64,000 nucleotides of DNA from Escherichia coli (GTDB taxonomy: Bacteria; Pseudomonadota; Gammaproteobacteria; Enterobacterales; Enterobacteriaceae): assembly GCF_030384885.1 (NCBI RefSeq), contig NZ_CP128613.1, one strand, 5' to 3'. The translations under genes were made by a program, and so were the position numbers. The notes under the pieces are model-generated. The model was given only the letters and a program-made list of their open reading frames with translations. It ran no database searches and was not told the origin of the DNA. Every line of letters starts with the position of its first letter. The first letter of the stretch is position 1. Shown one piece after another: positions 12,930 through 63,524 of the stretch.

Positions 12930-13080
12930 AACGGGAAAGCCCCTCCCGAGGAAGGGGCCTTAAATAAGGAAAGGGTCATGATGAAGATACTCATCATCGT
13001 GGTGCTCTTAGTCGTTAGCTACCCAGCTTACTAAGACTACCAGGGCGGGGAAAACCCCGCTCTACCCTCACTCCTGAAAA
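12930..13080 (-). ncRNA. sibB: Sib-family antisense sRNA (antitoxin) fully overlapping the ibs ORF
   Basis: In K-12 each ibs is covered by a ~140-nt antisense Sib RNA. On the minus strand the hairpin GCCCCTTCCTCGGGAGGGGC followed by TTTCCCGTTT sits just upstream of the ibs start, consistent with a Sib terminator. Ends are approximate. Confidence 0.5.
12978..13034 (+). CDS. ibsB: Ibs-family type I toxin, 18 aa hydrophobic peptide (MMKILIIVVLLVVSYPAY)
   Basis: ATG ATG AAG start with SD-like AAGGAAAGGG upstream; peptide matches the Ibs pattern MMK-hydrophobic run-S-F/Y-P-A-Y. Symbol assigned only by synteny (copy nearest mdtA) and is uncertain. Confidence 0.7.
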   Translation: MMKILIIVVLLVVSYPAY

Positions 13081-13257
13081 TATGCCTTCACGGTCAGAAT
13101 GTCAATCCGCAGGCTTTGCAGTCTGCGATCCTGCCAGCAAATATTCTTTGCGAGTCGTTACGCAATAATCACAGATGAAACTATTTTATCTACGCGTTAG
13201 CGATAGACTGCATTCAGGGCGAAAGGAGGTAAGCCGATGATTTCAGCGGGACGCTGA

Positions 13258-13408
13258 AACGGGAAAGCCCCTCCCGAGGAAGGGGCCTTAAATAAGGAAA
13301 GGGTCATGATGAAGTGGATCATCATCGTGGTGCTCTTAGTCATTAGCTTACCGGCTTACTAAGACTACCAGGGCGGGGGAAACCCCGCTCAACCCTCACT
13401 CCTGAAAG
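13258..13408 (-). ncRNA. Sib-family antisense sRNA, middle copy
   Basis: Same hairpin plus T-tract arrangement as copy 1 (hairpin at 13267..13286); approximate ends. Confidence 0.45.
13306..13362 (+). CDS. Ibs-family type I toxin, 18 aa (MMKWIIIVVLLVISLPAY), middle copy
   Basis: Same architecture as the first copy within the second repeat unit; the peptide differs at a few positions. Confidence 0.65.
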   Translation: MMKWIIIVVLLVISLPAY

Positions 13409-13585
13409 TATGCCTTCACAATCAGATTGTCAATCCGCAGGCTTTGTAGTCTGCGATCCTGCCAGCAAATATTCTTTGCGAGACGTTACGCAATAATCAC
13501 ATGTGAAACTATTTTATCTGCAAGTTAGCGATAGACTGCTTGCATGGCGAAAGGAGGTAGGCCGCCGATTTCAGCGGGACGCTGA

Positions 13586-13736
13586 AACGGGAAAGCCCCT
13601 TCCGAGGAAGGGGCCTTAAATAAGGAAAGGGTCATGATGAAGCTACTCATCATCGTGGTGCTCTTAGTTATTAGCTGGCCAGCTTACTAAGACTACCAGG
13701 GCGGGGGAAACCCCGCTCTACCCTCACTCCTGAAGT
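13586..13736 (-). ncRNA. sibA: Sib-family antisense sRNA, third copy
   Basis: Hairpin GCCCCTTCCGAGGAAGGGGC at 13595..13614 with T-rich tail on the minus strand; approximate ends. Confidence 0.45.
13634..13690 (+). CDS. ibsA: Ibs-family type I toxin, 18 aa (MMKLLIIVVLLVISWPAY)
   Basis: Third repeat unit, same architecture. Symbol by synteny only (copy nearest yegL), uncertain. Confidence 0.65.
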   Translation: MMKLLIIVVLLVISWPAY

Positions 13737-13907
13737 TATGTTACTCCACCCTTATTGTCAATCTGTAAGTCCACGTTCTTGCGGGGCGAATAGCAAAACC
13801 CTCTGCGCTTATGGGCCGAATTCTGAAAGTTGCTTTGCCTGCTCTTATTTCATTATTGCAGTCGGTATGATACCGGACCTCAATAATTCTCTAAGAAAGG
13901 ATTTCTT

Positions 13908-16051: not shown

Positions 16052-17998
16052 ATGAAGACAAATATAAAAGTATTTACATCGACAGGTGAATTGACCACTC
16101 TCGGGCGTGAACTGGGCAAAGGCGGCGAAGGCGCGGTTTATGATATCGAGGAGTTTGTCGATAGCGTTGCCAAGATTTATCACACGCCGCCACCCGCCTT
16201 AAAACAGGACAAACTTGCCTTTATGGCTGCGACAGCTGACGCGCAGTTGCTGAATTATGTCGCCTGGCCGCAAGCAACGCTTCATAGTGGACGAGGTGGG
16301 AAGGTTATCGGTTTTATGATGCCAAAAGTTTCTGGTAAAGAACCGATTCATATGATCTATAGCCCGGCACATCGTCGCCAGAGTTACCCTCATTGTGCGT
16401 GGGATTTTCTCCTCTATGTTGCGCGCAATATTGCTTCATCTTTTGCTACGGTTCATGAGCACGGGCATGTCGTGGGTGACGTAAACCAGAACAGCTTTAT
16501 GGTAGGCCGTGACAGCAAAGTGGCGTTGATTGATAGCGACTCCTTTCAGATTAACGCCAATGGCACACTGCATTTATGCGAAGTCGGCGTGTCGCATTTT
16601 ACGCCGCCAGAGCTGCAAACCTTGTCGTCATTTGTTGGCTTTGAACGCACAGAAAATCACGATAATTTTGGCCTTGCGTTGCTGATATTTCACGTCTTGT
16701 TTGGTGGGCGGCATCCTTATTCTGGTGTGCCGCTTATCTCTGATGCGGGTAATGCGCTGGAGACGGATATTGCCCATTTTCGTTATGCCTACGCGTCAGA
16801 CAATCAGAGACGTGGCTTAAAACCGCCGCCACGATCGATTCCGCTATCGATGTTACCGGGTGATGTTGCAGCCATGTTTCAGCAGGCATTCACGGAAAGT
16901 GGCGTGGCAACCGGGCGTCCGACGGCAAAAGCGTGGGTTGCGGCACTTGATTTACTACGCCAACAATTAAAGAAATGTACCGTTTCAGCAATGCATGTTT
17001 ACCCTTGTCATTTAACCGACTGCCCGTGGTGTGCGCTGGATAATCAAGGCGTTATCTATTTTATTGATCTCGGCGAAGAGGTGATTACCACCGTCGGTGA
17101 TTTTGTGCTGGCGAAAGTCTGGGCGATGGTGATGGCGTCAGTAGCACCACCAGCATTACAGTTACCATTACCCGATCATTTCCAACCAGCTGGCAGGCCG
17201 CTTCCTTTAGGCCTGTTACGGCGTGAATACATTATTCTGATTGAGATCACACTGTCAGCGTTATCGCTGTTGCTTTGCGGTCTTCAGGCAGAACCGCGTT
17301 ATATTATTTTGGTGCCTGTGCTGGCGGCTATCTGGATTATTGGCAGTCTGACAAGCAAAGCTTACAAAGCAGAAGTCCAGCACCGTCGTGAGGTATTTAA
17401 TCGTGCGAAAATGGACTATGACCATTTAGTCAGCCAGATCCAACAGTTGGGCGGGTTGGAAGGTTTTATCGCCAAACGGACGATGCTTGAAAAAATGAAG
17501 GACGAAATTCTTGGGTTACCGGAAGAAGAAAAGCGCGATCTGGCAGCACTTCAGGACAACGCAAGGGAACGGCAGAAGCAGAAGTTTCTGGAGGGATTTT
17601 TTATTGATGCTGCCTCTATTCCCGGCGTTGGCCCTGCGCGTAAAGCGGCGTTACGGTCTTTTGGTATTGAAACAGCAGCAGATGTTACCCGTCGTGGTGT
17701 TAAGCAAGTGAAAGGGTTTGGTGATCATCTGACCCAGGCGGTTATCGACTGGAAAGCGAGTTGCGAACGCCGTTTTGTGTTCAGGCCGAATGAAGCGGTA
17801 ACGCCAGCAGACAGACAAGCGGTAATGGCGAAAATGACCGCCAAACGACATCGGCTGGAATCGGCACTGATTGTCGGCGCGACAGAGTTGCAGCGATTCC
17901 GCCTTCATGCTCCTGCACGGACCATGCCGTTGATGGAACCATTACGTCAGGCAGCGGAGAAACTGGCTCAGGCGCAGGCTGATTTAAGCCGCTGCTGA
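16052..17998 (+). CDS. yegI: YegI, eukaryotic-like Ser/Thr protein kinase with TM and coiled-coil C-terminal region
   Basis: 648 aa; Gly-rich loop LGKGGEGAVYDI, VAIK-like VAKIYH, catalytic-loop-like HGHVVGDVNQNSF, DFG-like IDSDSF; hydrophobic segments near residues 350-430. Confidence 0.9.
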   Translation: MKTNIKVFTSTGELTTLGRELGKGGEGAVYDIEEFVDSVAKIYHTPPPALKQDKLAFMAATADAQLLNYVAWPQATLHSGRGGKVIGFMMPKVSGKEPIHMIYSPAHRRQSYPHCAWDFLLYVARNIASSFATVHEHGHVVGDVNQNSFMVGRDSKVALIDSDSFQINANGTLHLCEVGVSHFTPPELQTLSSFVGFERTENHDNFGLALLIFHVLFGGRHPYSGVPLISDAGNALETDIAHFRYAYASDNQRRGLKPPPRSIPLSMLPGDVAAMFQQAFTESGVATGRPTAKAWVAALDLLRQQLKKCTVSAMHVYPCHLTDCPWCALDNQGVIYFIDLGEEVITTVGDFVLAKVWAMVMASVAPPALQLPLPDHFQPAGRPLPLGLLRREYIILIEITLSALSLLLCGLQAEPRYIILVPVLAAIWIIGSLTSKAYKAEVQHRREVFNRAKMDYDHLVSQIQQLGGLEGFIAKRTMLEKMKDEILGLPEEEKRDLAALQDNARERQKQKFLEGFFIDAASIPGVGPARKAALRSFGIETAADVTRRGVKQVKGFGDHLTQAVIDWKASCERRFVFRPNEAVTPADRQAVMAKMTAKRHRLESALIVGATELQRFRLHAPARTMPLMEPLRQAAEKLAQAQADLSRC

Positions 17999-29761: not shown

Positions 29762-29800
29762 CAGTGTATTGGTAGCTAAAAAGCCAGGGGCGGTAGCGTG
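29762..29800 (+). promoter_or_regulatory. JUMPstart element with ops (RfaH-dependent antitermination) in the wza leader
   Basis: CAGTGTATTGGTAGCTAAAAAGCCAGGGGCGGTAGCGTG contains the ops core GGCGGTAGCGTG about 180 nt upstream of wza. Confidence 0.85.
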
Positions 29801-42857: not shown

Positions 42858-44294
42858 ATGTCGCAGTCGAAACTCTATCCAGTTGTGATGGCAGGTGGCT
42901 CCGGTAGCCGCTTATGGCCGCTTTCCCGCGTACTTTATCCCAAGCAGTTTTTATGCCTGAAAGGCGATCTTACCATGCTGCAAACCACCATCTGCCGCCT
43001 GAACGGCGTGGAGTGCGAAAGCCCGGTGGTGATTTGCAATGAGCAGCACCGCTTTATTGTCGCGGAACAGCTGCGTCAACTGAACAAACTCACCGAGAAC
43101 ATTATTCTCGAACCGGCAGGGCGTAACACTGCACCTGCCATTGCGTTGGCGGCGCTGGCGGCAGAACGTCATAGCCCGGACAGCGATCCGTTAATGTTGG
43201 TCCTGGCGGCAGATCATGTGATTGCCGACGAAGACGCGTTCCGCGCCGCCGTGCGTAATGCCATGCCGTATGCCGAAGCGGGCAAGCTGGTGACCTTCGG
43301 CATTGTGCCGGATCTACCTGAAACCGGATATGGCTATATTCGTCGCGGTGAAGTGTCGGCGGGTGAGCAGGATACGGTGGCCTTTGAAGTGGCGCAGTTT
43401 GTCGAAAAACCGAATCTGGAAACCGCTCAGGCCTATGTGGCAAGCGGCGAATATTACTGGAACAGCGGCATGTTCCTGTTCCGCGCCGGACGTTATCTCG
43501 AAGAACTGAAAAAATATCGCCCGGATATTCTCGACGCCTGCGAAAAAGCGATGAGCGCCGTCGATCCGGATCTCGATTTTATTCGCGTGGATGAAGAAGC
43601 GTTTCTCGCCTGCCCGGAAGAGTCGGTGGATTACGCGGTCATGGAACGTACGGCAGATGCCGTTGTGGTGCCGATGGATGCGGGCTGGAGCGATGTCGGT
43701 TCCTGGTCCTCTTTATGGGAGATCAGCGCCCACACCGCGGAAGGCAACGTTTGCCACGGCGATGTGATTAATCACAAAACCGAAAACAGCTACGTGTATG
43801 CCGAATCTGGCCTGGTCACCACCGTCGGGGTAAAAGATCTGGTAGTGGTGCAGACCAAAGACGCGGTGCTGATTGCCGACCGTAACGCGGTGCAGGATGT
43901 GAAAAAAGTGGTCGAGCAGATCAAAGCCGATGGTCGCCATGAGCATCGGGTGCATCGCGAAGTGTATCGCCCGTGGGGCAAATATGACTCTATCGACGCG
44001 GGCGACCGCTACCAGGTGAAACGCATCACCGTGAAACCGGGCGAGGGCTTGTCGGTACAGATGCACCATCACCGCGCGGAACATTGGGTAGTGGTCGCGG
44101 GAACGGCAAAAGTCACCATTGACGGTGATATCAAACTGCTTGGTGAAAACGAGTCCATTTATATTCCGCTGGGGGCAAAACACTGCCTGGAAAACCCCGG
44201 GAAAATTCCCCTCGATTTAATTGAAGTGCGCTCCGGCTCTTATCTCGAAGAGGATGATGTGGTGCGCTTCGCGGATCGCTACGGACGGGTGTAG
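42858..44294 (+). CDS. cpsB: Mannose-1-phosphate guanylyltransferase (colanic acid copy)
   Basis: 478 aa; N-terminal nucleotidyltransferase motif [16 protein letters not shown] and C-terminal cupin domain. Confidence 0.95.
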
Positions 44295-44395
44295 TAGTTG
44301 AATAATCAACCGGAATAAATCTCCGGTAAATAACGACAAAAACAAAATTGGCCGTTTCGGTCAGGGCCAATTATTGCCTGAAAAAGGGTAACGAT

Positions 44396-45766
44396 ATGAA
44401 AAAATTAACCTGCTTTAAAGCCTATGATATTCGCGGAAAATTAGGCGAAGAACTGAATGAAGATATCGCCTGGCGTATTGGGCGTGCTTATGGCGAATTT
44501 CTCAAACCGAAAACCATTGTGTTAGGCGGTGACGTCCGTCTCACCAGCGAAACCTTAAAACTGGCGCTGGCAAAAGGGTTACAGGATGCGGGCGTTGACG
44601 TGCTGGATATCGGCATGTCCGGCACCGAAGAGATCTATTTCGCCACGTTCCATCTCGGCGTGGATGGCGGCATCGAAGTTACCGCCAGCCATAATCCGAT
44701 GGATTACAACGGCATGAAACTGGTGCGCGAAGGGGCTCGCCCGATCAGCGGTGATACCGGACTGCGCGACGTCCAGCGTCTGGCAGAAGCCAACGATTTT
44801 CCTCCCGTCGATGAAACCAAACGCGGTCGCTATCAGCAAATCAACCTGCGCGACGCTTACGTTGATCATCTGTTCGGTTATATCAACGTCAAAAACCTTA
44901 CGCCGCTCAAGCTGGTGATCAACTCCGGGAACGGTGCGGCGGGTCCGGTGGTGGACGCCATCGAAGCCCGCTTTAAAGCCCTCGGCGCACCCGTGGAATT
45001 GATCAAAGTACACAACACGCCGGACGGCAATTTCCCCAACGGTATTCCTAATCCATTGCTGCCGGAATGCCGCGACGATACCCGCAATGCGGTCATTAAA
45101 CACGGCGCGGATATGGGTATTGCCTTTGATGGCGATTTTGACCGCTGTTTCCTGTTTGACGAAAAAGGACAGTTTATCGAGGGCTACTACATTGTCGGCC
45201 TGCTGGCAGAAGCGTTCCTCGAAAAAAATCCCGGCGCGAAGATCATCCACGATCCACGTCTTTCCTGGAACACCGTTGATGTAGTGACTGCCGCAGGCGG
45301 CACCCCGGTGATGTCAAAAACCGGACACGCCTTTATTAAAGAACGTATGCGCAAGGAAGACGCCATCTATGGTGGCGAAATGAGCGCCCACCATTACTTC
45401 CGTGATTTCGCTTACTGCGACAGCGGCATGATCCCGTGGCTGCTGGTCGCCGAACTGGTGTGCATGAAAGGGAAAACGCTGGGCGAACTGGTGCGCGACC
45501 GCATGGCGGCATTCCCGGCAAGCGGTGAGATCAACAGCAAACTGGCGCACCCCGGTGAGGCGATTAATCGCGTCGAACAGCATTTTAGCCGCGAGGCGCT
45601 GGCGGTGGATCGCACCGATGGTATCAGCATGACCTTTGCCGACTGGCGCTTTAACCTGCGCTCCTCCAACACCGAACCGGTGGTACGCCTGAATGTGGAA
45701 TCGCGCGGTGATGTGCCGCTGATGGAAGCGCGAACGCGAACTCTGCTGACGTTGCTGAACGAGTAA
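44396..45766 (+). CDS. cpsG: Phosphomannomutase (colanic acid copy)
   Basis: Start at [17 protein letters not shown] gives 456 aa; active-site TASHNP and metal-binding DGDFDR. Confidence 0.95.
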
Positions 45767-50048: not shown

Positions 50049-51265
50049 AGGTCGGCTTCTTTTTACTGAAATTTCCGCTGTCGTCGGAAACCTTCGTTCT
50101 CAACCAAATCACTGCGTTTATTGATATGGGCTTTGAGGTGGAGATTGTCGCGCTGCAAAAAGGCGATACGCAAAACACCCACGCGGCATGGACGAAATAT
50201 ACCCTTGCCGCCAGAACTCGCTGGTTACAGGACGAACCACAAGGCAAAGTGGCGAAACTGCGCCACCGCGCCAGCCAGACCTTACGCGGCATTCATCGTA
50301 AAAATACCTGGCAGGCGCTCAACCTCAAACGCTATGGTGCTGAGTCGCGGAACCTGATTTTGTCTGCCATTTGCGGCCAGGTCGCAACACCGTTTCATGC
50401 TGATGTGTTTATCGCACATTTTGGCCCAGCGGGGGTAACCGCAGCAAAACTACGGGAACTGGGTGTCATTCGCGGCAAAATCGCCACTATCTTCCACGGT
50501 ATTGATATCTCCAGTCGGGAAGTGCTCAACCATTACACTCCCGAATATCAACAACTGTTTCGCCGTGGCGACCTGATGTTACCGATTAGCGATCTGTGGG
50601 CCGGAAGGCTGCAAAAAATGGGCTGCCCGAGGGAAAAAATTGCCGTATCGCGCATGGGTGTAGACATGACGCGCTTTAGCCCGCGTCCGGTGAAAGCGCC
50701 CGCAACACCGCTGGAAATCATTTCCGTCGCACGCTTAACCGAGAAAAAAGGCCTGCATGTGGCGATCGAAGCCTGCCGTCAGTTGAAAGAGCAGGGCGTG
50801 GCATTTCGCTATCGCATCCTCGGCATTGGCCCGTGGGAACGACGCCTGCGCACCCTCATCGAACAATATCAACTGGAAGATGTGGTAGAGATGCCGGGCT
50901 TTAAACCGAGCCACGAAGTGAAGGCGATGCTCGACGACGCGGATGTCTTTCTGTTGCCATCGGTAACGGGTGCTGACGGCGATATGGAAGGCATTCCGGT
51001 GGCGCTGATGGAAGCGATGGCGGTCGGCATTCCGGTGGTTTCTACTCTGCATAGCGGAATACCGGAACTGGTGGAGGCCGATAAATCCGGCTGGCTGGTG
51101 CCTGAGAACGATGCTCGCGCACTGGCGCAACGACTGGCGGCGTTTAGCCAACTGGACACCGACGAACTTACTACGGTTGTCAAACGTGCGCGCGAAAAAG
51201 TCGAACACGATTTTAACCAGCAGGTGATTAACCGAGAACTCGCCAGCTTGTTGCAGGCTTTATAG
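50045..51265 (+). CDS. wcaL: Colanic acid glycosyltransferase WcaL (GT1)
   Basis: 406 aa; GT1 family; 4-bp overlap with wcaK. Confidence 0.92.
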
Positions 51266-51275
51266 AGGAGAACGC

Positions 51276-52670
51276 ATGCCATTTAAAAAACTCTCCCGAC
51301 GCACCTTCCTGACGGCAAGCTCGGTGCTTGCCTTCCTCCATACCCCTTTCGCCCGTGCAATTCCCGCTCAACAAAGCGTTAACATTAACGACTACAATCC
51401 ACATGACTGGATCGCTTCATTTAAACAAGCCTTCAGCGAAGGGCAAACGGTCGTCGTGCCTGGCGGATTGGTTTGCGACAATATCAACACCGGCATCTTC
51501 ATCCCCCCTGGCAAAACGTTACACATCCTGGGAAGCCTGCGCGGCAACGGCAGAGGGCGATTTGTCTTACAGGACGGCAGCCAGGTGACAGGGGAGAAGG
51601 GCGGCAGTATGCATAACATCACCCTGGATGTGCGCGGCTCTGACTGCACCATTAAAGGGCTGGCCATGAGCGGCTTTGGCCCGGTAACGCAGATTTATAT
51701 TGGCGGCAAAAACAAACGCGTCATGCGCAACCTGACCATCGATAACCTCACCGTTAGCCATGCTAACTACGCTATCTTACGGCAGGGATTTCATAATCAG
51801 ATTATTGGTGCCAACATCACCAACTGTAAGTTCAGCGACTTACAGGGCGACGCTATTGAATGGAACGTGGCGATTAACGACAGTGATATTTTGATATCCG
51901 ACCATCTCATTGAGCGCATTAACTGTACCAACGGCAAAATCAACTGGGGCATCGGCATAGGCCTTGCGGGAAGTACCTACGATAATAATTATCCGGAAAA
52001 CCAGGCAGTGAAAAACTTTGTCGTTGCGAATATCACGGGATCAGATTGTCGGCAACTGATCCATGTTGAAAATGGTAAACATTTTGTTATTCGTAATATC
52101 AAAGCCCGCAATATCACGCCGGATTTCAGTAAGAAAGCAGGCATTGATAACGCGACAGTTGCTATTTACGGTTGTGACAATTTCGTGATTGATAATATTG
52201 AAATGATTAATAGCGCCGGGATGTTAATCGGTTATGGGGTAATTAAAGGCAAATATCTCTCGATACCGCAGAATTTCCGAGTGAATAATATTCAACTGGA
52301 TAATACCCACCTTGCTTACAAATTGCGCGGCATCCAAATCTCCGCCGGGAATGCCGTCTCCTTTGTGGCACTGACTAACATTGAGATGAAGCGTGCCTCG
52401 CTGGAGCTTCACAATAAACCGCAACACCTTTTTATGCGCAATATCAAGGTGATGCAGGAATCCTCTGTTGGACCTGCATTGAGCATGAACTTCGACATGC
52501 GCAAAGACGTTCGTGGCGTGTATATGGCGAAAAAAGAAACACTGCTGTCTCTTGCAAATGTTCATGCGGTGAATGAAAGAGGGCAAAGCTCCGTCGATAT
52601 CGACAGGATTAATCACCATATTGTTAATGTGGAAAAGATTAACTTTAGATTGCCGGAACGGAGGGAGTAG
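51276..52670 (+). CDS. wcaM: Colanic acid biosynthesis protein WcaM (predicted secreted, pectate-lyase-like fold)
   Basis: 464 aa; signal-peptide-like N-terminus [21 protein letters not shown] (Tat-like RRTFL); last gene of the wca operon. Confidence 0.9.
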
Positions 52671-52844
52671 ATTTGCGACCATTCCTGGAAAAATGGAGCC
52701 ATACTTAGGAACAATGCTACTGCAATCCACAACGAAGCGGCGTAACATCACAAGTAATTCAGTAATCAATTCAGGGTAATTGATGCTGGCGAAAAAAATC
52801 GAACAAGCTATAATTCAGCAACCATTTTACAGGTGGATGAAATA

Positions 52845-53738
52845 ATGACGAATTTAAAAGCAGTTATTCCTGTAGCGGGTCTTGGGATGCATATGTTGCC
52901 TGCCACTAAGGCGATTCCCAAAGAGATGCTACCGATCGTCGACAAGCCAATGATTCAGTACATTGTTGACGAGATTGTGGCTGCAGGGATCAAAGAAATC
53001 CTCCTGGTAACTCACGCGTCCAAGAACGCGGTCGAAAACCACTTCGACACCTCTTATGAATTAGAATCTCTCCTTGAACAGCGCGTGAAGCGTCAACTGC
53101 TGGCGGAAGTGCAGTCTATCTGTCCGCCGGGCGTGACCATTATGAACGTGCGTCAGGGCGAACCTTTAGGTTTAGGCCACTCCATTTTGTGTGCACGACC
53201 CGCCATTGGTGACAACCCATTTGTTGTGGTATTGCCGGACGTTGTGATCGACGACGCCAGTGCCGACCCGCTGCGCTACAACCTTGCTGCCATGATTGCG
53301 CGCTTCAACGAAACGGGCCGCAGCCAGGTGCTGGCAAAACGTATGCCGGGTGACCTCTCTGAATACTCCGTCATCCAGACCAAAGAGCCGCTGGACCGCG
53401 AAGGTAAAGTCAGCCGCATTGTTGAATTTATCGAAAAACCGGATCAGCCACAGACGCTGGACTCAGACATCATGGCCGTAGGTCGCTATGTGCTTTCTGC
53501 CGATATTTGGCCGGAACTTGAACGAACTCAACCTGGCGCATGGGGACGTATTCAACTGACTGATGCCATTGCTGAACTGGCGAAAAAACAGTCCGTTGAT
53601 GCCATGCTGATGACTGGTGACAGCTACGACTGCGGTAAAAAAATGGGTTATATGCAGGCATTTGTGAAGTATGGACTACGCAACCTGAAAGAAGGGCCAA
53701 AGTTCCGTAAGAGCATTGAGAAGTTGCTCGGGGAATAG
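52845..53738 (+). CDS. galF: UTP-glucose-1-phosphate uridylyltransferase-like regulatory subunit GalF
   Basis: Start at [39 protein letters not shown] gives 297 aa. Confidence 0.95.
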
Positions 53739-53992
53739 ATCCAAGCCAATGTAACAATAATTTAGATAAATAGCGGCAGCTAACATCCCGGCGTCTATGC
53801 TTTAAACAAAGGAATGTTACTGTCGTTTTTCTTTTTAAAACAAAGAATAACAACGAGTTAACCTACTAAGTTTAATCTATTTTTTGTTGGATTTATCCTT
53901 GTTTCTGACAGCATTTGGTAAGACAATTGGCGTTTGAATTTAAGATAGCTTTGCGATAGCTAGCGGGGCGGAGTACATCTTTGGCATTTTGC

Positions 53993-54031
53993 TAGTGCAC
54001 TGGTAGCTGTTAAGCCAGGGGCGGTAGCGTG
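53993..54031 (+). promoter_or_regulatory. JUMPstart element with ops preceding the O-antigen cluster
   Basis: CTAGTGCACTGGTAGCTGTTAAGCCAGGGGCGGTAGCGTG, ops core GGCGGTAGCGTG, about 100 nt upstream of the first O-antigen gene. Confidence 0.85.
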
Positions 54032-54130
54032 GTAAGATTGTGTTTATATGATGCGTTCTCAAAATAAGAAATAATAATCCTGACTATCTTTATACTATTG
54101 ATAATATCTGAAATAAACTTAAGAGCAAAC

Positions 54131-55135
54131 ATGAAAGTAATTGTAAATAATTTTTTTGATGGTATTTTGAAAAGAGGAATACCGATCTATACTTCTGAAC
54201 TTGTGCAAAAGTTAAGAGACAATAATGTTCAGGTTATTTATGTTGCATGTCCAAAAGCATTCCATAAGCTGCCTTCATGGTTTCTGAATGTTCTTTTTAT
54301 AATAGTAGAGCAGCTTTTAATACCAATTATGGGTATATTTTATAGAACTAAGTATAATATATATCCCTATAATAGTAGTTCCATCATTGACTTGTTATTA
54401 GGTAAGGCAATTGTTATAATTCATGACTTCATTAGTCTTAAGAAAAATAAACGAAACCTTGCTGCCATTTATGTGAAAGTCTGTATTTATTTTTCATCTT
54501 TTTTAGCAAAGAAAGTAATATTTATTTCTCAAAGCACTCAGCGAGTATCTAAGAGAATATCGCTATTTAAGCGTATAGAATCTATCCTGCTCCCAAATCC
54601 ATTTTTCTCATTTGAGAAAATTGCTAATGTTACCGAAATAAAAGATCTTGGATATTTACTTCTAGTTTCAGGTTTAGGGGATAATAAGGATCTAGGCACA
54701 GCTCTGGACTATTATTTTTCAATCCCAAGGGAAGAAAGAATACCATTAAAAATATTAGGTTGTGGGAATGGTATTAGCAAGGTTAACGACTTAATTGATG
54801 GGCGGGATACAGATAAAGAAATTGAAATTATTGGTTTTGTTTCTTTAGAGGAAGTCGTCAAACTATATTGTAATTCTAAAATTGTTTGGGCTCATTCGCT
54901 TGCCGAGGGGTATGGCAGGACTTTAGCTGAAGCAAAACTCACATGCAAAAATGTTATATGCACACGGATCTCTGCTTTCCGCGAACAAAAGGATTCGAAT
55001 ATTTTCTTTTATACTTACTATTCTGAGTATTATGAAGTCTATTCATACTTGGTAGATAATTCACCCAGTGTCGAAAGGAAAGCTCTGCATGAACATATTT
55101 TATTTGAAAATGAATTGAGAAAGATTTATGAGTAA
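54131..55135 (+). CDS. O-antigen glycosyltransferase (GT1/GT4-like, possible mannosyltransferase)
   Basis: Track ORF 54098..55135 starts on a non-ATG codon; ATG at 54131 (MKVIVNNFFDG) is the likely start. C-terminal EX7E-like motif HSLAEGYGRTLAEA. Very AT-rich. Confidence 0.75.
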   Translation: MKVIVNNFFDGILKRGIPIYTSELVQKLRDNNVQVIYVACPKAFHKLPSWFLNVLFIIVEQLLIPIMGIFYRTKYNIYPYNSSSIIDLLLGKAIVIIHDFISLKKNKRNLAAIYVKVCIYFSSFLAKKVIFISQSTQRVSKRISLFKRIESILLPNPFFSFEKIANVTEIKDLGYLLLVSGLGDNKDLGTALDYYFSIPREERIPLKILGCGNGISKVNDLIDGRDTDKEIEIIGFVSLEEVVKLYCNSKIVWAHSLAEGYGRTLAEAKLTCKNVICTRISAFREQKDSNIFFYTYYSEYYEVYSYLVDNSPSVERKALHEHILFENELRKIYE

Positions 55136-56330
55136 TATTGATATAAATAAGAAACAGATATTAGTTTTGACTCCACGGTTCCCATTTCCTGTCATTGGTG
55201 GGGATCGATTACGTATCTATAAGATCTGTAAAGAACTGTCTAAGCATTATGATCTTACGTTGCTGAGTCTGTGTGATAAACGCGAAGAGCTCAACTATGA
55301 ATATGATCGTGAAGTTTTTAGTAGTGTTCACAGAGTATATCTTTCAAAGAAAAAATCTGTTTTAAATGTCATATTCTCTTTGTTTTCAAATACACCCCTA
55401 CAGATTGGGTATTATAAATCTAAAGAATTTGAAGATAAACTTAAGCAGTTATTACCTGAACATTCTGCAACTCTTTCACATTTGATAAGGGTTGGTGATT
55501 ATGTGAAAGAGAATAAAGATATAAATTTTTTAGAGATGACCGATGCCATTTCACTTAATTATAAACGAGTAAAGGAAAAAGCATCTTTATTGAGTTTAAA
55601 AACATTTGTATATTCTTTTGAACAAAAAAGACTCGAACGATATGAGCGAACTATAAATAACAAGTTCAGCTTGACTACTTTGGTATCACAGGTTGACTCC
55701 GATTATTTATATCCAGAGCGTCCGAATAATGTATTAGTTTGTGGAAATGGTGTTGATGCCGTTAGCTTACCTTTTTCAGAACGAAAAATAGCTAAAGATA
55801 AAAAGATAACCCTTGTATTTATAGGTAATTTATATTCTTTGCAAAATATGGATGGTGTGAGATGGTTCACCAAGGAAGTTTTACCATTTCTGAACAAGCA
55901 TGGTAATTTTGAATTTAAGGTCATCGGACGTATTACAGATAAAGATAAGAGTTGGTTAGAAAGCCAGCCTGGCGTTGTTGTCACAGGTGAAGTTGATAGC
56001 ATAACTTATGCAGCAGCTGATGGGCATATTGGTGTGTGTCCTATTAGATTAGGGGCAGGTATCCAAAATAAGGTACTTGAATATATGGCGTTGGGATTAC
56101 CTTGTATATCTTCTACTGTAGGCTTTGAAGGCTTGGGAGCAGAGGAGGGTAAGGAGATTTATGTTGCCAATACAAAAGAAGAATATTTACGTGTATTAAA
56201 TTATTTTATAACAAATCTGGATAAATATACCGAAACAGCATTAGTTGCGAAAAAGTTTATCGATGAGAATTTTTCATGGGAAGCTAAATTGAGCCCATAT
56301 ATCCAGAAAATTAAGGAGTCTGTTAAATAA
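55128..56330 (+). CDS. O-antigen glycosyltransferase (GT1/GT4 family)
   Basis: 400 aa; N-terminus [21 protein letters not shown] and C-terminal GT1 domain; AT-rich; overlaps the preceding gene by 8 bp. Confidence 0.8.
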
Positions 56331-56331
56331 A

Positions 56332-57747
56332 ATGATTATCCCAATTATTATGGCCGGTGGTTCTGGGACTCGCTTATGGCCTCTTTCGCGTTCGTTATAC
56401 CCGAAACAATTTTTATCATTGACTAATGAAAATAGTTTGCTCCAGGAAACGTTGAAGCGACTTGATGGATTAAATTGTTTGCCTCCTGTCATTGTTAGCA
56501 ATAATGAGCATAGATTTATTGTTGCTGAACAATTGCGACAGTTCGGTGTGGATGACTTCCAGATTATTCTAGAACCTGTAGGTAGAAATACTGCGCCCGC
56601 CGTTGCGCTGGCTGCTCTAAAGGCTCTGGAACTCCATGGCGATCATCATATGCTGGTTCTTGCTGCTGACCATGCTATTCAGGATATTGAAGCCTTCCAT
56701 GCAGCTGTTTTAGCTGCAGAACAAGAGTCCGTTGACAATAAGTTAGTGACTTTTGGCATCGTCCCGACCAAACCTGAAACTGGGTATGGCTATATTAAAA
56801 AGGGCGAACAAGTTAAAAACTCCGTATTTAAAGTAAATTCTTTCGTCGAAAAACCTGATTTAGAAACGGCTAAAAATTATCTCGAACAAAAATGCTATTT
56901 GTGGAATAGTGGTATGTTCATGTTCAAGGCGAGCGTATATTTAGATGAATTGAAAAAATTTCGCCCTGATATTTTAGCAGCGTGTAAAGAGTCGCTTTCC
57001 AGTGCTAGTACTGATCTAGATTTTATCAGATTAAATTCTGATGTCTTTGCAGAATGTCCCGATGAGTCAATTGATTATGCGGTAATGGAAAAAACTCAGG
57101 ATTGTGTAGTTATTCCACTTGATGCTGACTGGAGTGACATCGGATCATGGACATCACTTTGGGAAATATCAGAGAAAGATGAACATGAAAACGTATCGCA
57201 TGGTGATGTAATTAACTATAACAGCAGGAACAACTACATTTACTCTGAAGGTTCACTGATCAGCACTGTTGGAGTTAATAACCTTATTATAGTTCAAACT
57301 AAAGATGCGCTCCTGGTAGCACAGCAAGACAACGTACAAGACATAAAGAAAATTGTCGAAATTCTTAAAAAACAAAAACGTAGCGAACATATATCCCATC
57401 GCGAAGTCTATCGTCCTTGGGGACGTTATGATTCTGTAGAACGTGGCGACCGTTATCAGGTAAAACGTATTACCGTTAAGCCTGGTGAATGTCTCTCAAC
57501 ACAAATGCATCATCATCGAGCTGAGCATTGGGTGGTTGTCGCTGGTACTGCAAAGGTGACTTGCGGCGAACGCACTTATTTCGTCACTGAAAATGAGTCA
57601 ACTTTCATACCAATTGGCACAGTTCATACCTTGGAAAATCCAGGAAAGATACCATTAGAAGTAATTGAGATTCAGTCGGGTGTATATCTAGGTGATGATG
57701 ATATTGTGCGCCTAAGTGATAAATATGGTCGTGTTGAGGATAAATAA
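56332..57747 (+). CDS. manC: Mannose-1-phosphate guanylyltransferase (O-antigen copy)
   Basis: 471 aa; [16 protein letters not shown] nucleotidyltransferase motif and cupin C-terminus; paralogous to cpsB but with divergent AT-rich DNA. Confidence 0.93.
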
Positions 57748-57751
57748 TTAT

Positions 57752-59173
57752 ATGAATATTACCAATGATGTAATTAAAAATAGCGGAATTGCATTTGGTA
57801 CAAGTGGTGCTCGTGGATTAGTGAAAGATTTTACACCCAACGTGTGTGCTGCATTCACTTATGCTTTTATCGATGTAATGATGAAGGATTTTTCTTTTAA
57901 AGAGGTTGCGCTCGCAATAGATAATCGCCCAAGCAGCTATGCTATGGCACAAGCTTGCGCAGCAGCATTGTTGGAATGTAGTATTAAACCTATTTACTAC
58001 GGTGTAATTCCAACTCCAGCTTTGGCAAATCAAGCGATTGCCGATGGGATTCCTGCAATAATGGTTACTGGAAGTCATATTCCATTTGATAGAAATGGTT
58101 TGAAATTCTATCGTCCAGACGGGGAAATTTCAAAAGAAAATGAGAACAGCATTATACATGCTGAAAAAGAATATCCTGATGTAACTGTATTGCCAGAATT
58201 ACAATGTTCAAAGCGTGCCGCTGATACTTATATCGAGAGAAACACTTCAATTTTTTCAAATATATTTAAAGGTAAACGTATCGGGATTTATGAACATTCA
58301 AGTGCGGGACGGGATCTTTATCCAGAAATATTCAGTAAGCTTGGTGCTGAAGTTGTAAGTATTGGTAGAAGTGATGAGTTTGTGCCTATTGATACTGAAG
58401 CAGTATCAAAAGAAGATGAAGAAAAAGCTTTACACTGGTCATCTGAGTATGACCTCGATATGATTTTTTCTACCGATGGTGATGGCGATCGTCCTTTGGT
58501 TGCTGACGAAAATGGCGTTTGGTTACGGGGTGATATATTAGGACTATTTTGCTCAAAGGCAATGAATATTGAAGCGGTAGCTGTACCTGTAAGTTGTAAT
58601 ACGGTTATTCAGACCTGCGGGTGGTTTAATCATGTAACGCTGACTAAAATTGGTTCACCATACGTCATTTCAGCGTTTGATTCTCTGAATAATAGTTTTG
58701 ATAGTGTTGCAGGGTTTGAGGCTAACGGTGGGTATCTTTTAGGTAGCGATGTAAATTATAACAGCGGTATGATTAAAGCGCTTCCAACAAGAGATGCTGT
58801 TTTGCCTGCTTTAATGGTACTGGCACTGGCTATAAAAAATAATGTGACTATTTCAAAACTTTTGGCGGAGTTGCCACCACGATTTACCTATTCAAATAGA
58901 GTTCAAAATTTTGCAACAAGCAAAAGCAAAAGCATTATCGCGTCAGCTCAAGAAAATCCTCAAGAATTTATCGAAAGAATAGGCTTTGTCGACCTTCATG
59001 TACAATCGGTGGATACAATTGACGGGTTAAGATTGACACTAAGTGATGGTTCAATAATCCATTTGCGACCGTCAGGCAACGCACCTGAATTGCGATGCTA
59101 TGCAGAAGCAGATAACATAATAAAAGCTGAGAAATTAGTGTTAGAAATTTTGCATAAAGTTACTCTTTTGTAA
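57752..59173 (+). CDS. manB: Phosphomannomutase (O-antigen copy, PMM/PGM family)
   Basis: Track ORF from 57716; ATG at 57752 ([22 protein letters not shown]) is the likely start. Motifs [11 protein letters not shown] and DGDGDR. Confidence 0.88.
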
Positions 59174-59356
59174 AAAAATATAAACTTTTTTCTACTCTTG
59201 AGCGGTTTGTCATTGAACCGCTCAGTAATAGATTATTTTTAACTTGTTTATATTTAGCATTGGTGTTTTTATTTGCGTTCATCCCGAATAAGAGATTGTA
59301 AAATTAACTGTTTCTTGTTTTTCAAATGAGTTACTTCACTAGCAAAGCTAATTACT

Positions 59357-60688
59357 ATGCATAAGCAATATTATTCATTATTGTGCAATAAAATACAGTT
59401 TAAACATCTGGCTATATATTTTTCTGTATTTCTTTCACTATCCTCATGTTTCTTGTGGGGAGGGGCGGATACATTTGTATCGCAAGTGTATATTGATATT
59501 TTAGCCACTATATCTACAGCTCTATTAGTTATTTTGATGTTCTATTATTATATTAATAGAGTTCGCTATTTATCACTAACCTTACTTTTTGCATTCGTTT
59601 TTTCTTTGATTATTGGTTTGCCATCGATTTATCTTTACTATTTTAAAAACGCAAATCATGGGTTTGAAATAATTTGTATCTGGGGGATGTTGATCAATTC
59701 CATCCTTTACTTGCAAACAACAGAGACTGTCATAAAAGAAGAAAAAAGATATTTAACTAGTTTATTTTATATTTTGTTTTCTATTGTTGCACTGTGTCAA
59801 TTATGCAAAATATTAATTTATCTTATGTTTATATTGAATTCAGGAGAAGGGCATTTAGCAATTTATACTGAAAGCGAAGAATTGCTATCCCAAGTTCCAT
59901 TTTTTATTCGTGCTATTAGTGGTTTTGCAGTTGTAATGTCATTGTCCACTTTTTATTTTAAAACACCGACCTACATTAAAGTTATTGCATTTATTTTACT
60001 TGCATCTGATTTAGCTATTGGAATACGTAATAAGTTTTTCTTTTCAGTGATTTGTATTTTTATACTATATATGTACTCTAATGAGTATAGAGTAAGGAAT
60101 TTATTTAAGCAGCTCTCAAAACCAATATTTCTCATCGCGGGTTTTTTATGCTTCTCGATGGTATCGTATTTCCGTGAAGGGTACCAAATCGATTTTATGA
60201 ATTATATTGGCATTGTTTTAGATTCGCTATCCTCTACTCTTGGGGGGATGCAGAATTTGTTTGATATGCAATCATCAGGATGGGATCAACTTCATCCCGC
60301 TGTGGTATTCACACAAGTATTACCGCTAAGCGGTCTTGGTTTTCTTGATGATCAACAAATCGCAAAAGATTTTTCAATAATTGTTTTAGGTGATGTATCC
60401 TCTGGTATTGCGTTGTCATCTTCAGGATTGTTAGAGTCATCGTTGCTGAGTCTAAATTTGGGAGTGATTATTTATTTACTGTATTTATCAGGGGTGATGC
60501 TATTTATTAAATGGGGACTAAATAATCAACGGATAATAATAAACTTTGTTGCCATCTCCATGATATCTGGATTTTTTTATGCTGTTCGTGGTGAACTGAT
60601 TTTGCCATTGGCTTTTCTTCTAAAATCATTGCCGATTGTTCTTATATCTCCATTACTTGTTAAAAATAAAATTTATCATGGTCAGTAA
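59357..60688 (+). CDS. wzy: O-antigen polymerase Wzy (putative)
   Basis: 443 aa, highly hydrophobic multi-TM protein, very AT-rich, no recognisable enzymatic motif; start codon uncertain. Confidence 0.7.
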   Translation: MHKQYYSLLCNKIQFKHLAIYFSVFLSLSSCFLWGGADTFVSQVYIDILATISTALLVILMFYYYINRVRYLSLTLLFAFVFSLIIGLPSIYLYYFKNANHGFEIICIWGMLINSILYLQTTETVIKEEKRYLTSLFYILFSIVALCQLCKILIYLMFILNSGEGHLAIYTESEELLSQVPFFIRAISGFAVVMSLSTFYFKTPTYIKVIAFILLASDLAIGIRNKFFFSVICIFILYMYSNEYRVRNLFKQLSKPIFLIAGFLCFSMVSYFREGYQIDFMNYIGIVLDSLSSTLGGMQNLFDMQSSGWDQLHPAVVFTQVLPLSGLGFLDDQQIAKDFSIIVLGDVSSGIALSSSGLLESSLLSLNLGVIIYLLYLSGVMLFIKWGLNNQRIIINFVAISMISGFFYAVRGELILPLAFLLKSLPIVLISPLLVKNKIYHGQ

Positions 60689-60729
60689 GTGGTTTATTTT
60701 TCGACCAGGATCTCACCAGTAGGCATGAC

Positions 60730-61965
60730 ATGATCAAAGAAATTTTCTCCGATGGCATTTTTTCGCTATTTAATAAAATATGTTACTTCGGTTTTAAAAC
60801 ACTTGCAATAATTCTGATTACTCGTTCCTTAGGAGAAGATGTAGGCGGAGAGTTCATTTTTTTAGTTGGTTTTCTCGAAGTCCTTCGGGTGGTTACTGAT
60901 TTTGGTGTGGATCTGTTTGTTATAAAAAAATATAATGATTCTACAGATAAAATAAAACTATTAAATGTAACGTTTGCACAAAAAATTCTTTCTGGAGTAA
61001 TTGTTTCACTACTGTTTTGTTTGTATTCTTTTGTTCATGGTTATCAATATAATGTCTATATTCCTATTGTGTTAGCCTTACCTGTTGCTTTATTTTTTAA
61101 TTTCTCAAATAGCTATTTTCAATCTCTCAATTCCAATAAATCCCTCACGTTTCCGATCGCAATTGCATCTATTGCAACGTGTACGATCTTCGCTATTCAG
61201 TATTTTTTAAACGTTAAATTTAACGCATGGGATTACCTGTGTGTTGAACTATTATTCGTATCGCTGGTTACACTAAAACTATTCGTTAGTGTCAAGTTTA
61301 GGTTTATTAGAACGTCAGCTTTTGATGTGCTAATGTCAATTCTTTCTTTATATAAATATACATTAAGTATAGGTCTTACAGCTGTTGTTGTAATTATTTA
61401 TAGCCGTGTAGATAATTTTTATCTCAAGACATTTGCCCCAGGGGATCTTGCAGCATATGGCCAGATATTTAGGATGGTTGATCCACTGGTTATGGTTTCT
61501 TCTGTATTTTCTACAGTTGCCTATGCAAGATTTTGCCGAATTAACTTACAAGAAAAAAATGCTTTTACTAAGGTGTTTCAGTTCCTGTTATGTATTGTGG
61601 CATATGGCGTGCTGAGTTCATTAGTTTATTTCTTTATAATAAAATACCTGGGTCATTTTGTGTTGATTTCTAATGTTAATAATGATTTCTTGATAATGAT
61701 GTTCTTGATTGTTGCATGTGTGAAATGTATCAATGGTGGTACAACTGCAATAATTCAGTCACAGGGGTTTTATAAAGTGGGTTTGTATGTTTCGTATGTT
61801 TGCATTTTGACATCGATACCAACTATGTATTTCTTAATAATGAAGTACGGTGTTAAAGGTGCTGCTATGACGATTCTGCTTGTAGAGTGTATTAGTTTCA
61901 TATTACTTCTCTGCAGCTTTTTTATGATAAAAAAGATGCGTCCTAAAAAAACATTCGAAATGTAA
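60730..61965 (+). CDS. wzx: O-antigen flippase Wzx (putative)
   Basis: 411 aa multi-TM protein; N-terminal region ILITRSLGEDVGGEFIFLVGFLEVLRVVTDFGVD resembles the PST-family flippase N-terminus. Confidence 0.7.
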   Translation: MIKEIFSDGIFSLFNKICYFGFKTLAIILITRSLGEDVGGEFIFLVGFLEVLRVVTDFGVDLFVIKKYNDSTDKIKLLNVTFAQKILSGVIVSLLFCLYSFVHGYQYNVYIPIVLALPVALFFNFSNSYFQSLNSNKSLTFPIAIASIATCTIFAIQYFLNVKFNAWDYLCVELLFVSLVTLKLFVSVKFRFIRTSAFDVLMSILSLYKYTLSIGLTAVVVIIYSRVDNFYLKTFAPGDLAAYGQIFRMVDPLVMVSSVFSTVAYARFCRINLQEKNAFTKVFQFLLCIVAYGVLSSLVYFFIIKYLGHFVLISNVNNDFLIMMFLIVACVKCINGGTTAIIQSQGFYKVGLYVSYVCILTSIPTMYFLIMKYGVKGAAMTILLVECISFILLLCSFFMIKKMRPKKTFEM

Positions 61966-62117
61966 TCAATGAGTCCTCTTTGAATAGAATTAGTTTGTTC
62001 TATTTATGAACACTTAGCTTGAGTAAGTTCTAACATAGATTACTAATTGTTTGATACTATCTGCTTTACAAGCATAACCGCGTATGTCGCGGTGACCACA
62101 CCTGACAGGAGTATGTA

Positions 62118-63524
62118 ATGTCCAAGCAACAGATCGGCGTCGTCGGTATGGCAGTGATGGGGCGCAACCTGGCGCTCAACATCGAAAGCCGTGGTTATAC
62201 CGTCTCCGTCTTCAACCGCTCCCGCGAAAAAACTGAAGAAGTTGTTGCCGAGAACCCGGGTAAGAAACTGGTTCCTTATTACACGGTGAAAGAGTTTGTC
62301 GAGTCTCTTGAAACCCCACGTCGCATCCTGTTAATGGTGAAAGCAGGTGCAGGCACGGATGCTGCTATTGATTCCCTCAAGCCATACCTCGATAAAGGTG
62401 ACATCATCATTGATGGTGGTAATACCTTCTTCCAGGACACCATTCGTCGTAACCGTGAGCTTTCTGCAGAAGGCTTTAACTTCATCGGTACCGGTGTTTC
62501 CGGCGGTGAAGAAGGTGCGCTGAAAGGACCTTCCATTATGCCTGGTGGGCAGAAAGAAGCCTATGAACTGGTTGCGCCGATCCTGACCAAAATCGCCGCC
62601 GTTGCTGAAGATGGCGAACCGTGCGTTACCTATATCGGTGCTGATGGCGCAGGCCATTATGTGAAGATGGTTCACAACGGTATTGAATACGGTGATATGC
62701 AACTGATTGCTGAAGCCTATTCTCTCCTGAAAGGCGGCCTGAATCTCTCTAACGAAGAACTGGCACAGACCTTTACCGAGTGGAATAACGGTGAACTAAG
62801 CAGCTACCTGATCGACATCACCAAAGACATCTTCACTAAAAAAGATGAAGACGGTAACTACCTGGTTGATGTGATCCTGGATGAAGCGGCTAACAAAGGT
62901 ACTGGTAAATGGACCAGCCAGAGCGCGCTGGATCTCGGCGAACCGCTGTCACTGATTACCGAGTCTGTGTTTGCCCGTTATATCTCTTCTCTGAAAGATC
63001 AGCGCGTTGCCGCGTCTAAAGTTCTCACTGGCCCGAAAGCGCAGCCAGCAGGCGATAAGGCTGAGTTTATCGAGAAAGTTCGTCGTGCGCTGTATCTGGG
63101 CAAAATCGTTTCTTACGCTCAGGGCTTCTCTCAGCTACGCGCCGCGTCTGAAGAGTACAACTGGGATCTGAACTACGGCGAAATCGCGAAGATTTTCCGT
63201 GCTGGCTGCATCATCCGTGCGCAGTTCCTGCAGAAAATCACCGATGCATACGCCGAAAATCCGCAGATCGCTAACCTGCTGCTGGCTCCGTACTTCAAGC
63301 AAATTGCCGATGACTACCAGCAGGCGCTGCGTGATGTCGTTGCTTATGCTATACAGAACGGTATCCCGGTTCCGACCTTCGCCGCTGCGGTTGCCTATTA
63401 TGACAGCTACCGTGCCGCTGTTCTGCCTGCAAACCTGATCCAGGCACAGCGTGACTATTTCGGTGCGCATACTTATAAGCGCATTGATAAAGAAGGTGTG
63501 TTCCATACTGAATGGCTGGATTAA
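62118..63524 (+). CDS. gnd: 6-phosphogluconate dehydrogenase, decarboxylating
   Basis: 468 aa; N-terminal NADP-binding [16 protein letters not shown]. Confidence 0.97.

Follow-up and report, generated by a model that had tools for sequence, protein, structure and literature searches.

The O-antigen gene cluster between galF and gnd in the analyzed stretch of Escherichia coli DNA (64 kb, referred to as the window) is almost certainly the cluster of the O77 group, i.e. of the serogroups O17, O44, O73, O77, and O106 (OgGp9 or "O77g"), carried in a cryptic clade I OG9:H45 background. The cluster as such was already known, and the analysis mainly corrects the size of its repeat unit and supplies the O-genotype. 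In the initial annotation, the serogroup had been regarded as unassignable from the sequence. This holds for the individual member, which is not encoded in the cluster, while the group is unambiguously given by the sequence.

Gene content and location of the cluster

According to the list of open reading frames (ORFs) and the PGAP annotation, six intact ORFs on the same strand occupy positions 54131–61965, flanked by galF on one side and gnd on the other (Table 1). They encode two glycosyltransferases followed by ManC, ManB, Wzy, and Wzx, and contain no internal stops. Both flanking genes scored above the NCBIfam equivalog cut-offs, placing the cluster at the galF-gnd site. ORFs, PGAP, and family matches thereby confirmed the six genes and their positions as initially annotated. 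With a GC content of 34.7%, compared to 49.8% for the window, the cluster was also confirmed to be far more AT-rich than its surroundings: values in a GC scan ranged from 0.28 to 0.41 within the cluster and from 0.47 to 0.55 in the flanks, and by gene from 0.32 to 0.40 for the six cluster genes compared to 0.51 for both galF and gnd. In Pfam searches, none of the six proteins matched an ABC transporter, and Wzx and Wzy were present. The previous classification as a Wzx/Wzy-type cluster that differs from the K-12 rfb cluster is supported.

[quoted passage not shown]
Feature	Position	Strand	Evidence
galF, upstream boundary gene	52845–53738	+	TIGR01105, 685.7 bits; PGAP
Low-divergence block	53739–62300	.	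0.3–0.9% from E. coli sensu stricto O77 group; clade I flanks ~4–8%
JUMPstart element, 5′ leader of O-antigen operon	53993–54031	+	Rfam RF01707, 59.2 bits (gathering score 35)
ops motif GGCGGTAG	54020–54027	+	Inside JUMPstart; exact match to GGCGGTAGCGTG; sequence read directly
Glycosyltransferase A, 334 aa, GT-B fold	54131–55135	+	Pfam Glycos_transf_1, 1.2e-10; PGAP start and name
Glycosyltransferase B, 400 aa, CAZy GT4-type	55128–56330	+	Pfam Glyco_trans_1_4, 5.4e-19; TIGR03087-like, 2.4e-62; PGAP
manC, bifunctional mannose-1-phosphate guanylyltransferase/mannose-6-phosphate isomerase	56332–57747	+	TIGR01479, 756.6 bits (cut-off 373)
manB, phosphomannomutase	57752–59173	+	All four PGM_PMM domains; PGAP "phosphomannomutase"
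wzy, O17/O44/O73/O77/O106-family O-antigen polymerase	59357–60688	+	PGAP name; exact sequence so named in NCBI
wzx, O17/O44/O73/O77/O106-family O-unit flippase	60730–61965	+	PGAP name; Polysacc_synt, 28.9 bits (cut-off 28.2)
gnd, downstream boundary gene	62118–63524	+	TIGR00873, 769.9 bits; PGAP

The cluster has its own manC-manB pair, as noted initially. It is the second such pair in the window, beside the colanic acid genes cpsB (42858–44294) and cpsG (44396–45766). ManC contains the Pfam domains NTP_transferase and MannoseP_isomer, predicting a function in GDP-mannose synthesis, and shares 62% identity with CpsB. For ManB, the identity to CpsG is only 25% and the NCBIfam CpsG model scored only 22 bits, so that ManB represents a lineage distinct from CpsG. 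An origin of manB by duplication of cpsG was ruled out by the 25% identity.

The JUMPstart/ops element previously reported ahead of the cluster was verified by the Rfam match and the exact ops motif; the Rfam match begins at the same position as the initially annotated cluster region. Scanning of positions 53600–62200 yielded 41 promoter-like sites compared to 36.1 ± 5.7 in shuffled sequences, and six terminator-like sites compared to 4.6, i.e. no excess of either. Therefore, no promoter or terminator is claimed.

Assignment to the O77 group

Between the stop codon of galF and the start codon of gnd (8379 bp), the sequence differs from that of strain 2013C-4282 by one SNP in a direct comparison (99.99%; 100.0% in the search). 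Over the 64 kb of the window, seven SNPs were found, including the one causing V213I in Wzy. In the PMC10100065 supplement, this strain appears under clade I with the genotype OG9 (O17/O44/O73/O77/O106):H45. It is an stx1a-positive cryptic clade I strain. Among 5426 complete genomes, this allele of the cluster was found in 2013C-4282 only, and the exact proteins are present on more than 500 draft contigs. The same stretch is about 99.3% identical in 91 further complete genomes, which include those of K12a (O17 type strain) and 042 (O44).

Clusters within the O77 group are more than 99% identical to each other (PMC7685785), and wzx and wzy exceeded this value in comparison with serotyped strains. 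Relative to K12a, 10 of the 1332 nucleotides of wzy and five of the 1236 nucleotides of wzx differ, and wzy is 99.2% identical to wzy of strain 042. The window shares with K12a (O17) and 042 (O44:H18) the six genes, their order and lengths, the galF-gnd site, JUMPstart, and the PGAP names of wzx and wzy, with DNA identities of 99.1–99.7% per gene; gene order and protein lengths are equal in the window, 2013C-4282, and K12a. Relative to the common allele of E. coli sensu stricto, the cluster analyzed here shows about 0.7% divergence, with 17 amino acid exchanges in total compared to K12a.

This divergence was determined by alignment with the O17 strain K12a (locus L003), counting differences by gene and by 250 bp. 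It is low over a block that includes the whole cluster, and rises sharply in the clade I flanks (Table 1). Judged from this pattern, the block is the laterally exchanged unit, with clear evidence of transfer of the entire cluster between clade I and E. coli sensu stricto.

For Wzy, the matches to O-ag_pol_Wzy and TIGR04370 were weak and both below the curated cut-offs. Therefore, its identification is based on near-identity to named references from serotyped strains. The protein differs at four residues from Wzy of K12a and at one residue (I213 instead of V213) from that of 2013C-4282. These exchanges could be taken as signs of a changed polymerase, and some type strains of E. coli are rough despite a complete cluster (PMC7685785). 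Nevertheless, a cluster that is present, but silent or altered in this strain, e.g. due to a rough phenotype or to I213 in Wzy, is very improbable, as all six ORFs and JUMPstart are intact, the substitutions are conservative (I/V), and the exact I213 variant of Wzy is found on 17 contigs in NCBI, while the count exceeds 500 for each of the remaining five proteins (e.g. 543 for glycosyltransferase A and 556 for Wzx).

Wzy peptide patterns did not reveal a relative in species-representative genomes. Relatives were recovered via the protein database and contig look-ups, and the members of the Wzy cluster are named Salmonella enterica.

Repeat unit and proposed assembly

The backbone of the O77 group is the tetrasaccharide →6)-α-Man-(1→2)-α-Man-(1→2)-β-Man-(1→3)-α-GlcNAc-(1→, in which two mannoses are attached by a single transferase (PMC7685785). 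Its three mannoses support the initial prediction of a mannose-containing repeat. The estimate of about a trisaccharide, derived from two glycosyltransferases beyond WecA, was wrong since one transferase adds two mannoses. It is also very improbable that the cluster would be novel or unassignable with such a short mannose-containing repeat, one sugar being added per glycosyltransferase and one by WecA: just two glycosyltransferase genes are indeed found between galF and gnd, but the clusters of serotyped O17 and O44 strains are more than 99% identical, the determined O77-group backbone is made of four sugars, two of which are added by the same transferase (PMC7685785), and a syntenic Salmonella cluster likewise has only two transferases.

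For the strain studied here, both the Man3-GlcNAc structure and the dual-acting transferase are adopted from the literature and should be read as predictions. The two enzymes had been described as GT1-family glycosyltransferases, which is correct in Pfam naming (Glycos_transf_1), the CAZy equivalent being GT4; glycosyltransferase B carries the PGAP name "glycosyltransferase family 4 protein". Glycosyltransferase A, which differs by one amino acid from that of the O17 type strain K12a, is tentatively predicted to be the mannosyltransferase for the β-Man-(1→3)-GlcNAc step, and glycosyltransferase B is a predicted α-1,2-mannosyltransferase. As the enzyme acting twice, we infer B to be the likelier candidate compared to A. 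Enzymes of the GT-B family Glycos_transf_1 are mostly retaining, a β-mannosyl linkage requires inversion, and retaining and inverting chemistry cannot be distinguished by the fold alone. Because both transferases look Glycos_transf_1-like, the assignment of linkages to enzymes is uncertain. Neither glycosyltransferase had a sequence match in the Protein Data Bank at E ≤ 0.01, so that no structure-based linkage assignment could be transferred.

In the proposed assembly, a promoter upstream of JUMPstart/ops would drive a single operon, and RfaH acting at ops would suppress termination across the AT-rich genes. ManB and ManC would supply GDP-mannose, while WecA, encoded outside the window, would transfer GlcNAc-1-P onto undecaprenyl phosphate. 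The two GT-B transferases would then add three mannoses, first in β1→3 and then twice in α1→2 linkage, with one of the enzymes acting twice. This proposed sequence of mannose additions by two transferases resembles that of eukaryotic Alg1 followed by Alg11. Wzx would flip Man3-GlcNAc-PP-Und, and Wzy would polymerize the units through α-GlcNAc-(1→6)-Man, the linkage being taken from the published structure (PMC7685785). WzzB would set the chain length, and WaaL would ligate the chain to lipid A-core. Both are encoded beyond the limits of the window; in 2013C-4282, wzzB comes after ugd, where locus L001 ends. Finally, periplasmic glucosylation by GtrA, GtrB, and GtrC from prophages elsewhere would determine the serogroup.

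Side branches and serogroup within the group

The serogroups O17, O44, O73, O77, and O106 differ only in glucose branches introduced by prophage gtr genes (PMC7685785, PMC13188871, PMC10304059). Glycosyltransferases encoded outside the cluster, which according to the initial annotation would count against its reading if required, thus exist in the form of gtr enzymes, but their role is to modify the backbone, which is built without them. In the near-identical genome of 2013C-4282, one gtrA-gtrB-gtrC operon with a GtrC-like gtrC is located at the lambda att site, outside the window. It is the only gtrAB locus of this genome.

The gtrC type of the operon was found in 24 of the 5426 complete genomes, all 24 of which also have the O77-group wzy, and was not found in 042 (O44) or K12a (O17). 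GtrC homologues with 89% identity occur in the Salmonella serovars Carrau and Florida. The candidate GtrC, a protein of 488 aa (WP_000174193.1), gave no Pfam match, and tblastn detected no homologue in the phage collection. At the DNA level, the gene of 2013C-4282 shares 99.9% identity with gtrC of CNREC_004-43, the strain of the French 2025 HUS outbreak, which did not agglutinate with O17, O44, O73, O77, or O106 antisera. In CNREC_004-43 and ST3, gtrC is intact. The gene of 2013C-4282 has a frameshift at codon 7, where the poly-A tract is recorded as A7 instead of A8 (NZ_CP027579.1, about 1828299–1828305), so that this strain may alternatively be plain O77. A side-branch pattern outside the five recognized serogroups in the source lineage is conceivable, though rather unlikely. 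If so, the uncharacterized GT-C-like GtrC would define a sixth form of the O77 group, or it would be an O73 or O106 glucosyltransferase.

The O77 group includes ST69 extraintestinal pathogens and the stx2d-positive HUS outbreak strain from France in 2025 (PMC13188871, PMC13094856). The finding is of some practical relevance. Here, the O77-group cluster is present within a Shiga toxin-positive cryptic clade I lineage. Furthermore, the candidate gtrC with its perfect co-occurrence with the backbone could account for some of the serological differences that escape genotyping.

Comparison with known systems

The arrangement resembles the gtrABC-mediated conversion of Shigella flexneri, where a fixed galF-gnd backbone is combined with serotype determination by prophage gtrA-gtrB-gtrC near att (PMC7685785, PMC10304059). 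It differs in that the O77-group backbone is Man3-GlcNAc and in that the GtrC candidate has neither a Pfam match nor a homologue in the phage collection. The O backbone of S. flexneri is rhamnose-based.

With the polymannose antigens of E. coli O8/O9 (WbdA/B/C), the cluster shares the richness in mannose and the presence of manC and manB. Some mannosyltransferases add more than one residue (PMC7685785). In contrast to O8/O9, the cluster described here contains wzx and wzy and no ABC-transporter match. O8/O9 antigens are exported by the ABC-transporter pathway with wzm/wzt.

An arrangement with equal gene order is found in Salmonella enterica (locus L004), where the genes for two glycosyltransferases (334 and 400 aa) and ManC (471 aa) followed by manB, wzy, and wzx are located between galF and gnd with nearly equal lengths. 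Compared to the cluster in the window, this locus is only 70–84% identical at the amino acid and 70–76% at the DNA level, and it contains an additional ORF of 89 aa (HTH_29) ahead of gnd. We take it to be the O:6,14 (group H) cluster, and Salmonella O:6,14 reportedly shares the backbone of the O77 group.

Gene content and layout of the O-antigen cluster

According to the ORF listing, with start sites taken from the PGAP annotation of a near-identical genome, the interval between galF and gnd contains six ORFs on a single strand. They form an intact block led by a JUMPstart element, and their products are the enzymes of GDP-mannose synthesis, two transferases of the GT-B type, one polymerase, and one flippase. 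The start of this JUMPstart coincides exactly with the start of the reported feature, and the ops motif was located by motif search and direct reading. Along the window, GC content is about 0.5 on either side of the cluster and drops to 0.28–0.41 within it (0.347 for the cluster as a whole vs. 0.498 for the window). Thus, the six genes, the AT-richness, JUMPstart/ops, and the dedicated manC-manB pair described in the initial annotation were all confirmed using ORFs, Pfam/NCBIfam, Rfam, and GC content.

Features of the window; divergence was measured in an alignment with O17 type strain K12a
Feature	Position	Strand	Length	Remarks
Three tandem Sib antitoxin RNAs	12963–13761			between mdtA and yegL; 137–139 bits each
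Second JUMPstart	29762–29800			57.3 bits; GGCGGTAGCGTG at 29789; ~180 bp upstream of wza
Colanic acid cluster	29979–52670			wza to wcaM
cpsB and cpsG	42858–45766			colanic acid
algC RNA motif	44342–44391			Rfam, 73.9 bits (gathering score 33.8); cpsB-cpsG gap
wcaL/wcaM	50739–52844			5.6% divergence
galF				4.0% divergence
Cluster	~53739 to 62300			0.3–0.9% divergence
JUMPstart	53993–54031			Rfam, 59.2 bits (gathering score 35)
ops motif	54020–54027			within JUMPstart
Glycosyltransferase A	54131–55135	+	334 aa	Pfam Glycos_transf_1
Glycosyltransferase B	55128–56330	+	400 aa	Pfam Glyco_trans_1_4
manC	56332–57747	+	471 aa	above TIGR01479 equivalog cut-off
manB	57752–59173	+	473 aa	all four phosphohexomutase domains
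manB-wzy spacer	59174–59356		183 bp	6 differences from K12a (3.3%)
wzy	59357–60688	+	443 aa	Wzy-family matches sub-threshold only (Pfam, NCBIfam)
wzx	60730–61965	+	411 aa	Polysacc_synt cut-off narrowly passed
gnd				4.4% divergence overall, climbing from 62318
Single-base differences from 2013C-4282	6687, 14658, 19915, 23491, 29891, 52522, 59993

This manC-manB pair is the second of its kind in the window, the other being the colanic acid genes cpsB and cpsG. Identity between the two pairs is 62% for ManC and CpsB but only 25% for ManB and CpsG. Unlike cpsG, the O-antigen manB has no algC RNA leader. The colanic acid cluster is headed by a JUMPstart of its own. Elsewhere in the window, the Sib RNAs lie opposite three annotated Ibs toxin genes of 18 aa each.

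Assignment to the O77 group

By megablast of 53739–62117, a full-length match was found in 92 of 5426 complete E. coli genomes, including K12a and the O44:H18 strain 042. The near-identical reference genome 2013C-4282 was given as 100.0% identical, with one SNP in direct comparison, and the remaining 91 were ~99.3% identical. In the PGAP annotation, both wzy and wzx bear the label ‘O17/O44/O73/O77/O106 family’. In comparison to K12a, gene order and lengths are the same, with 17 substitutions across the six proteins and no internal stops. Furthermore, the exact protein sequences are already recorded under O77-group names on hundreds of contigs. Genome matches, PGAP names, identical layout, and exact protein records together identify the cluster, as judged by sequence, as the already known O77-group cluster (OgGp9, ‘O77g’). 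The initial annotation had regarded the serogroup as not assignable, which does not hold for the group and stands for the member within it, on which the window carries no information.

Over the 64 kb, seven SNPs separate the window from 2013C-4282. At 14658, the window has TGG and the reference TAG; pphC is intact in the former and a pseudogene with an internal stop in the latter. At 59993, I213 of Wzy is replaced by V213 in the reference. Strain 2013C-4282 is a stx1a-positive human stool isolate of Escherichia cryptic clade I with the genotype OG9 (O17/O44/O73/O77/O106):H45 (PMC10100065).

Lateral exchange of the cluster

Divergence from K12a changes in sharp steps at 53690–53740 and 62240–62320, with ~4–8% outside and <1% inside; as read from the alignment, these steps delimit a segment that was exchanged laterally. 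Evidently, the clade I lineage and E. coli sensu stricto have swapped the whole cluster, by sequence much later than their chromosomes diverged. Such exchange is normal for O-antigen loci. The GalF protein is identical in the window and K12a despite the 4% DNA difference, and the manB-wzy spacer is several-fold more divergent than the genes around it.

The gtr locus of 2013C-4282

Between ybhB and ybhC, 2013C-4282 carries a 12.4-kb degraded prophage remnant with a copy of the lambda att core at either end (positions 16652 and 29033 of the extracted stretch L007; NZ_CP027579.1 ~1826651–1839032), the location given in the literature for the O44 gtr genes (PMC10304059). It contains gtrA, gtrB, and a GtrC-like gene annotated as ‘hypothetical protein’, and is the only gtrAB locus of this genome at blastn sensitivity. 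In the GtrC-like protein, about seven to ten hydrophobic segments precede a C-terminal domain that is soluble; a Pfam search gave no match, and close homologues are labelled ‘RgtA/B/C/D-like glycosyltransferase domain’ in UniRef. The Salmonella serovars Carrau and Florida, both of which belong to O:6,14, carry homologues that are 89% identical.

This gene type is present in only 24 of the 5426 complete genomes and absent from 042 (O44) and K12a (O17). A concatenated wzy+gtrC query hit 93 genomes at 117 places, with both parts in all 24 gtrC genomes; in these genomes, the O77-group backbone thus accompanies the gene without exception, the weight of this association being inflated by the common descent of some of them. 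The gene has a poly-A tract of A8 and encodes 488 aa in CNREC_004-43 and ST3, while 2013C-4282 has A7, causing a frameshift at codon 7 and a PGAP product of 471 aa with a TTG start; this may be real or a homopolymer error of the assembly. CNREC_004-43, the 2025 French HUS outbreak strain, agglutinated with none of the five antisera O17, O44, O73, O77, and O106, although O73 was the type obtained for a related strain (PMC13094856). The link of gtrC to serogroup is a lead, not a result.

Related loci in other bacteria

A protein database search revealed Wzy homologues with 46–56% identity in Ewingella, Xenorhabdus, Enterobacter, Citrobacter, Salmonella Cerro, and Yersinia. A 70%-identical Wzy is encoded on Salmonella contig L004, whose galF and gnd are 97% and 98.9% identical to those of S. 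Cerro. Its cluster, presumably that of Salmonella O:6,14, which Wang et al. 2007 reportedly described, agrees with that of the window in all six genes and in their order (70–84% aa identity). It differs by an 89-aa HTH_29 ORF between wzx and gnd (L004 11625–11894), possibly an insertion-sequence remnant, in place of which the window has a 152-bp spacer. S. Cerro also shows the layout two transferases, manC, manB, wzy, wzx, with more distant proteins. In Citrobacter portucalensis, a 334-aa glycosyltransferase groups with glycosyltransferase A when proteins are clustered at 90% identity; therefore, part or all of the O77-group cluster may also circulate in Citrobacter.

Repeat unit and proposed assembly

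According to a 2020 review of E. coli O antigens, the five O77-group clusters are >99% identical to each other and share the backbone ->6)-a-D-Man-(1->2)-a-D-Man-(1->2)-b-D-Man-(1->3)-a-D-GlcNAc-(1-> (PMC7685785); later papers restate these structural and genetic points (PMC13188871, PMC10304059). The mannose expected in the initial annotation was thereby borne out, with three residues per unit. Its estimate of about a trisaccharide from two transferases was wrong: the backbone is a tetrasaccharide, and the O77 group is listed among those with one glycosyltransferase moving two mannoses (PMC7685785), so that counting one sugar per transferase fails here. Further glycosyltransferases, which set the serogroup, are encoded elsewhere. 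The polymer is linear in O77 and carries glucose side branches in the other four, ascribed to gtr genes outside the cluster (PMC7685785).

In the established Wzx/Wzy scheme, taken together with the cited structure, synthesis would start with the transfer of GlcNAc-P to undecaprenyl phosphate by WecA, and three mannoses would be joined in the cytoplasm. We infer that the 334-aa enzyme forms the b1,3 linkage and the GT4-type 400-aa enzyme both a1,2 linkages. The unit would then be flipped by Wzx, linked by Wzy via a-GlcNAc-(1->6)-Man, and the chain completed by WzzB and WaaL, with RfaH presumably acting at ops. Among solved structures, no homologue of either transferase was detectable by sequence. 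By analogy, the proposed order, A then B, would resemble the succession of Alg1 and Alg11 when eukaryotic N-glycans are assembled.
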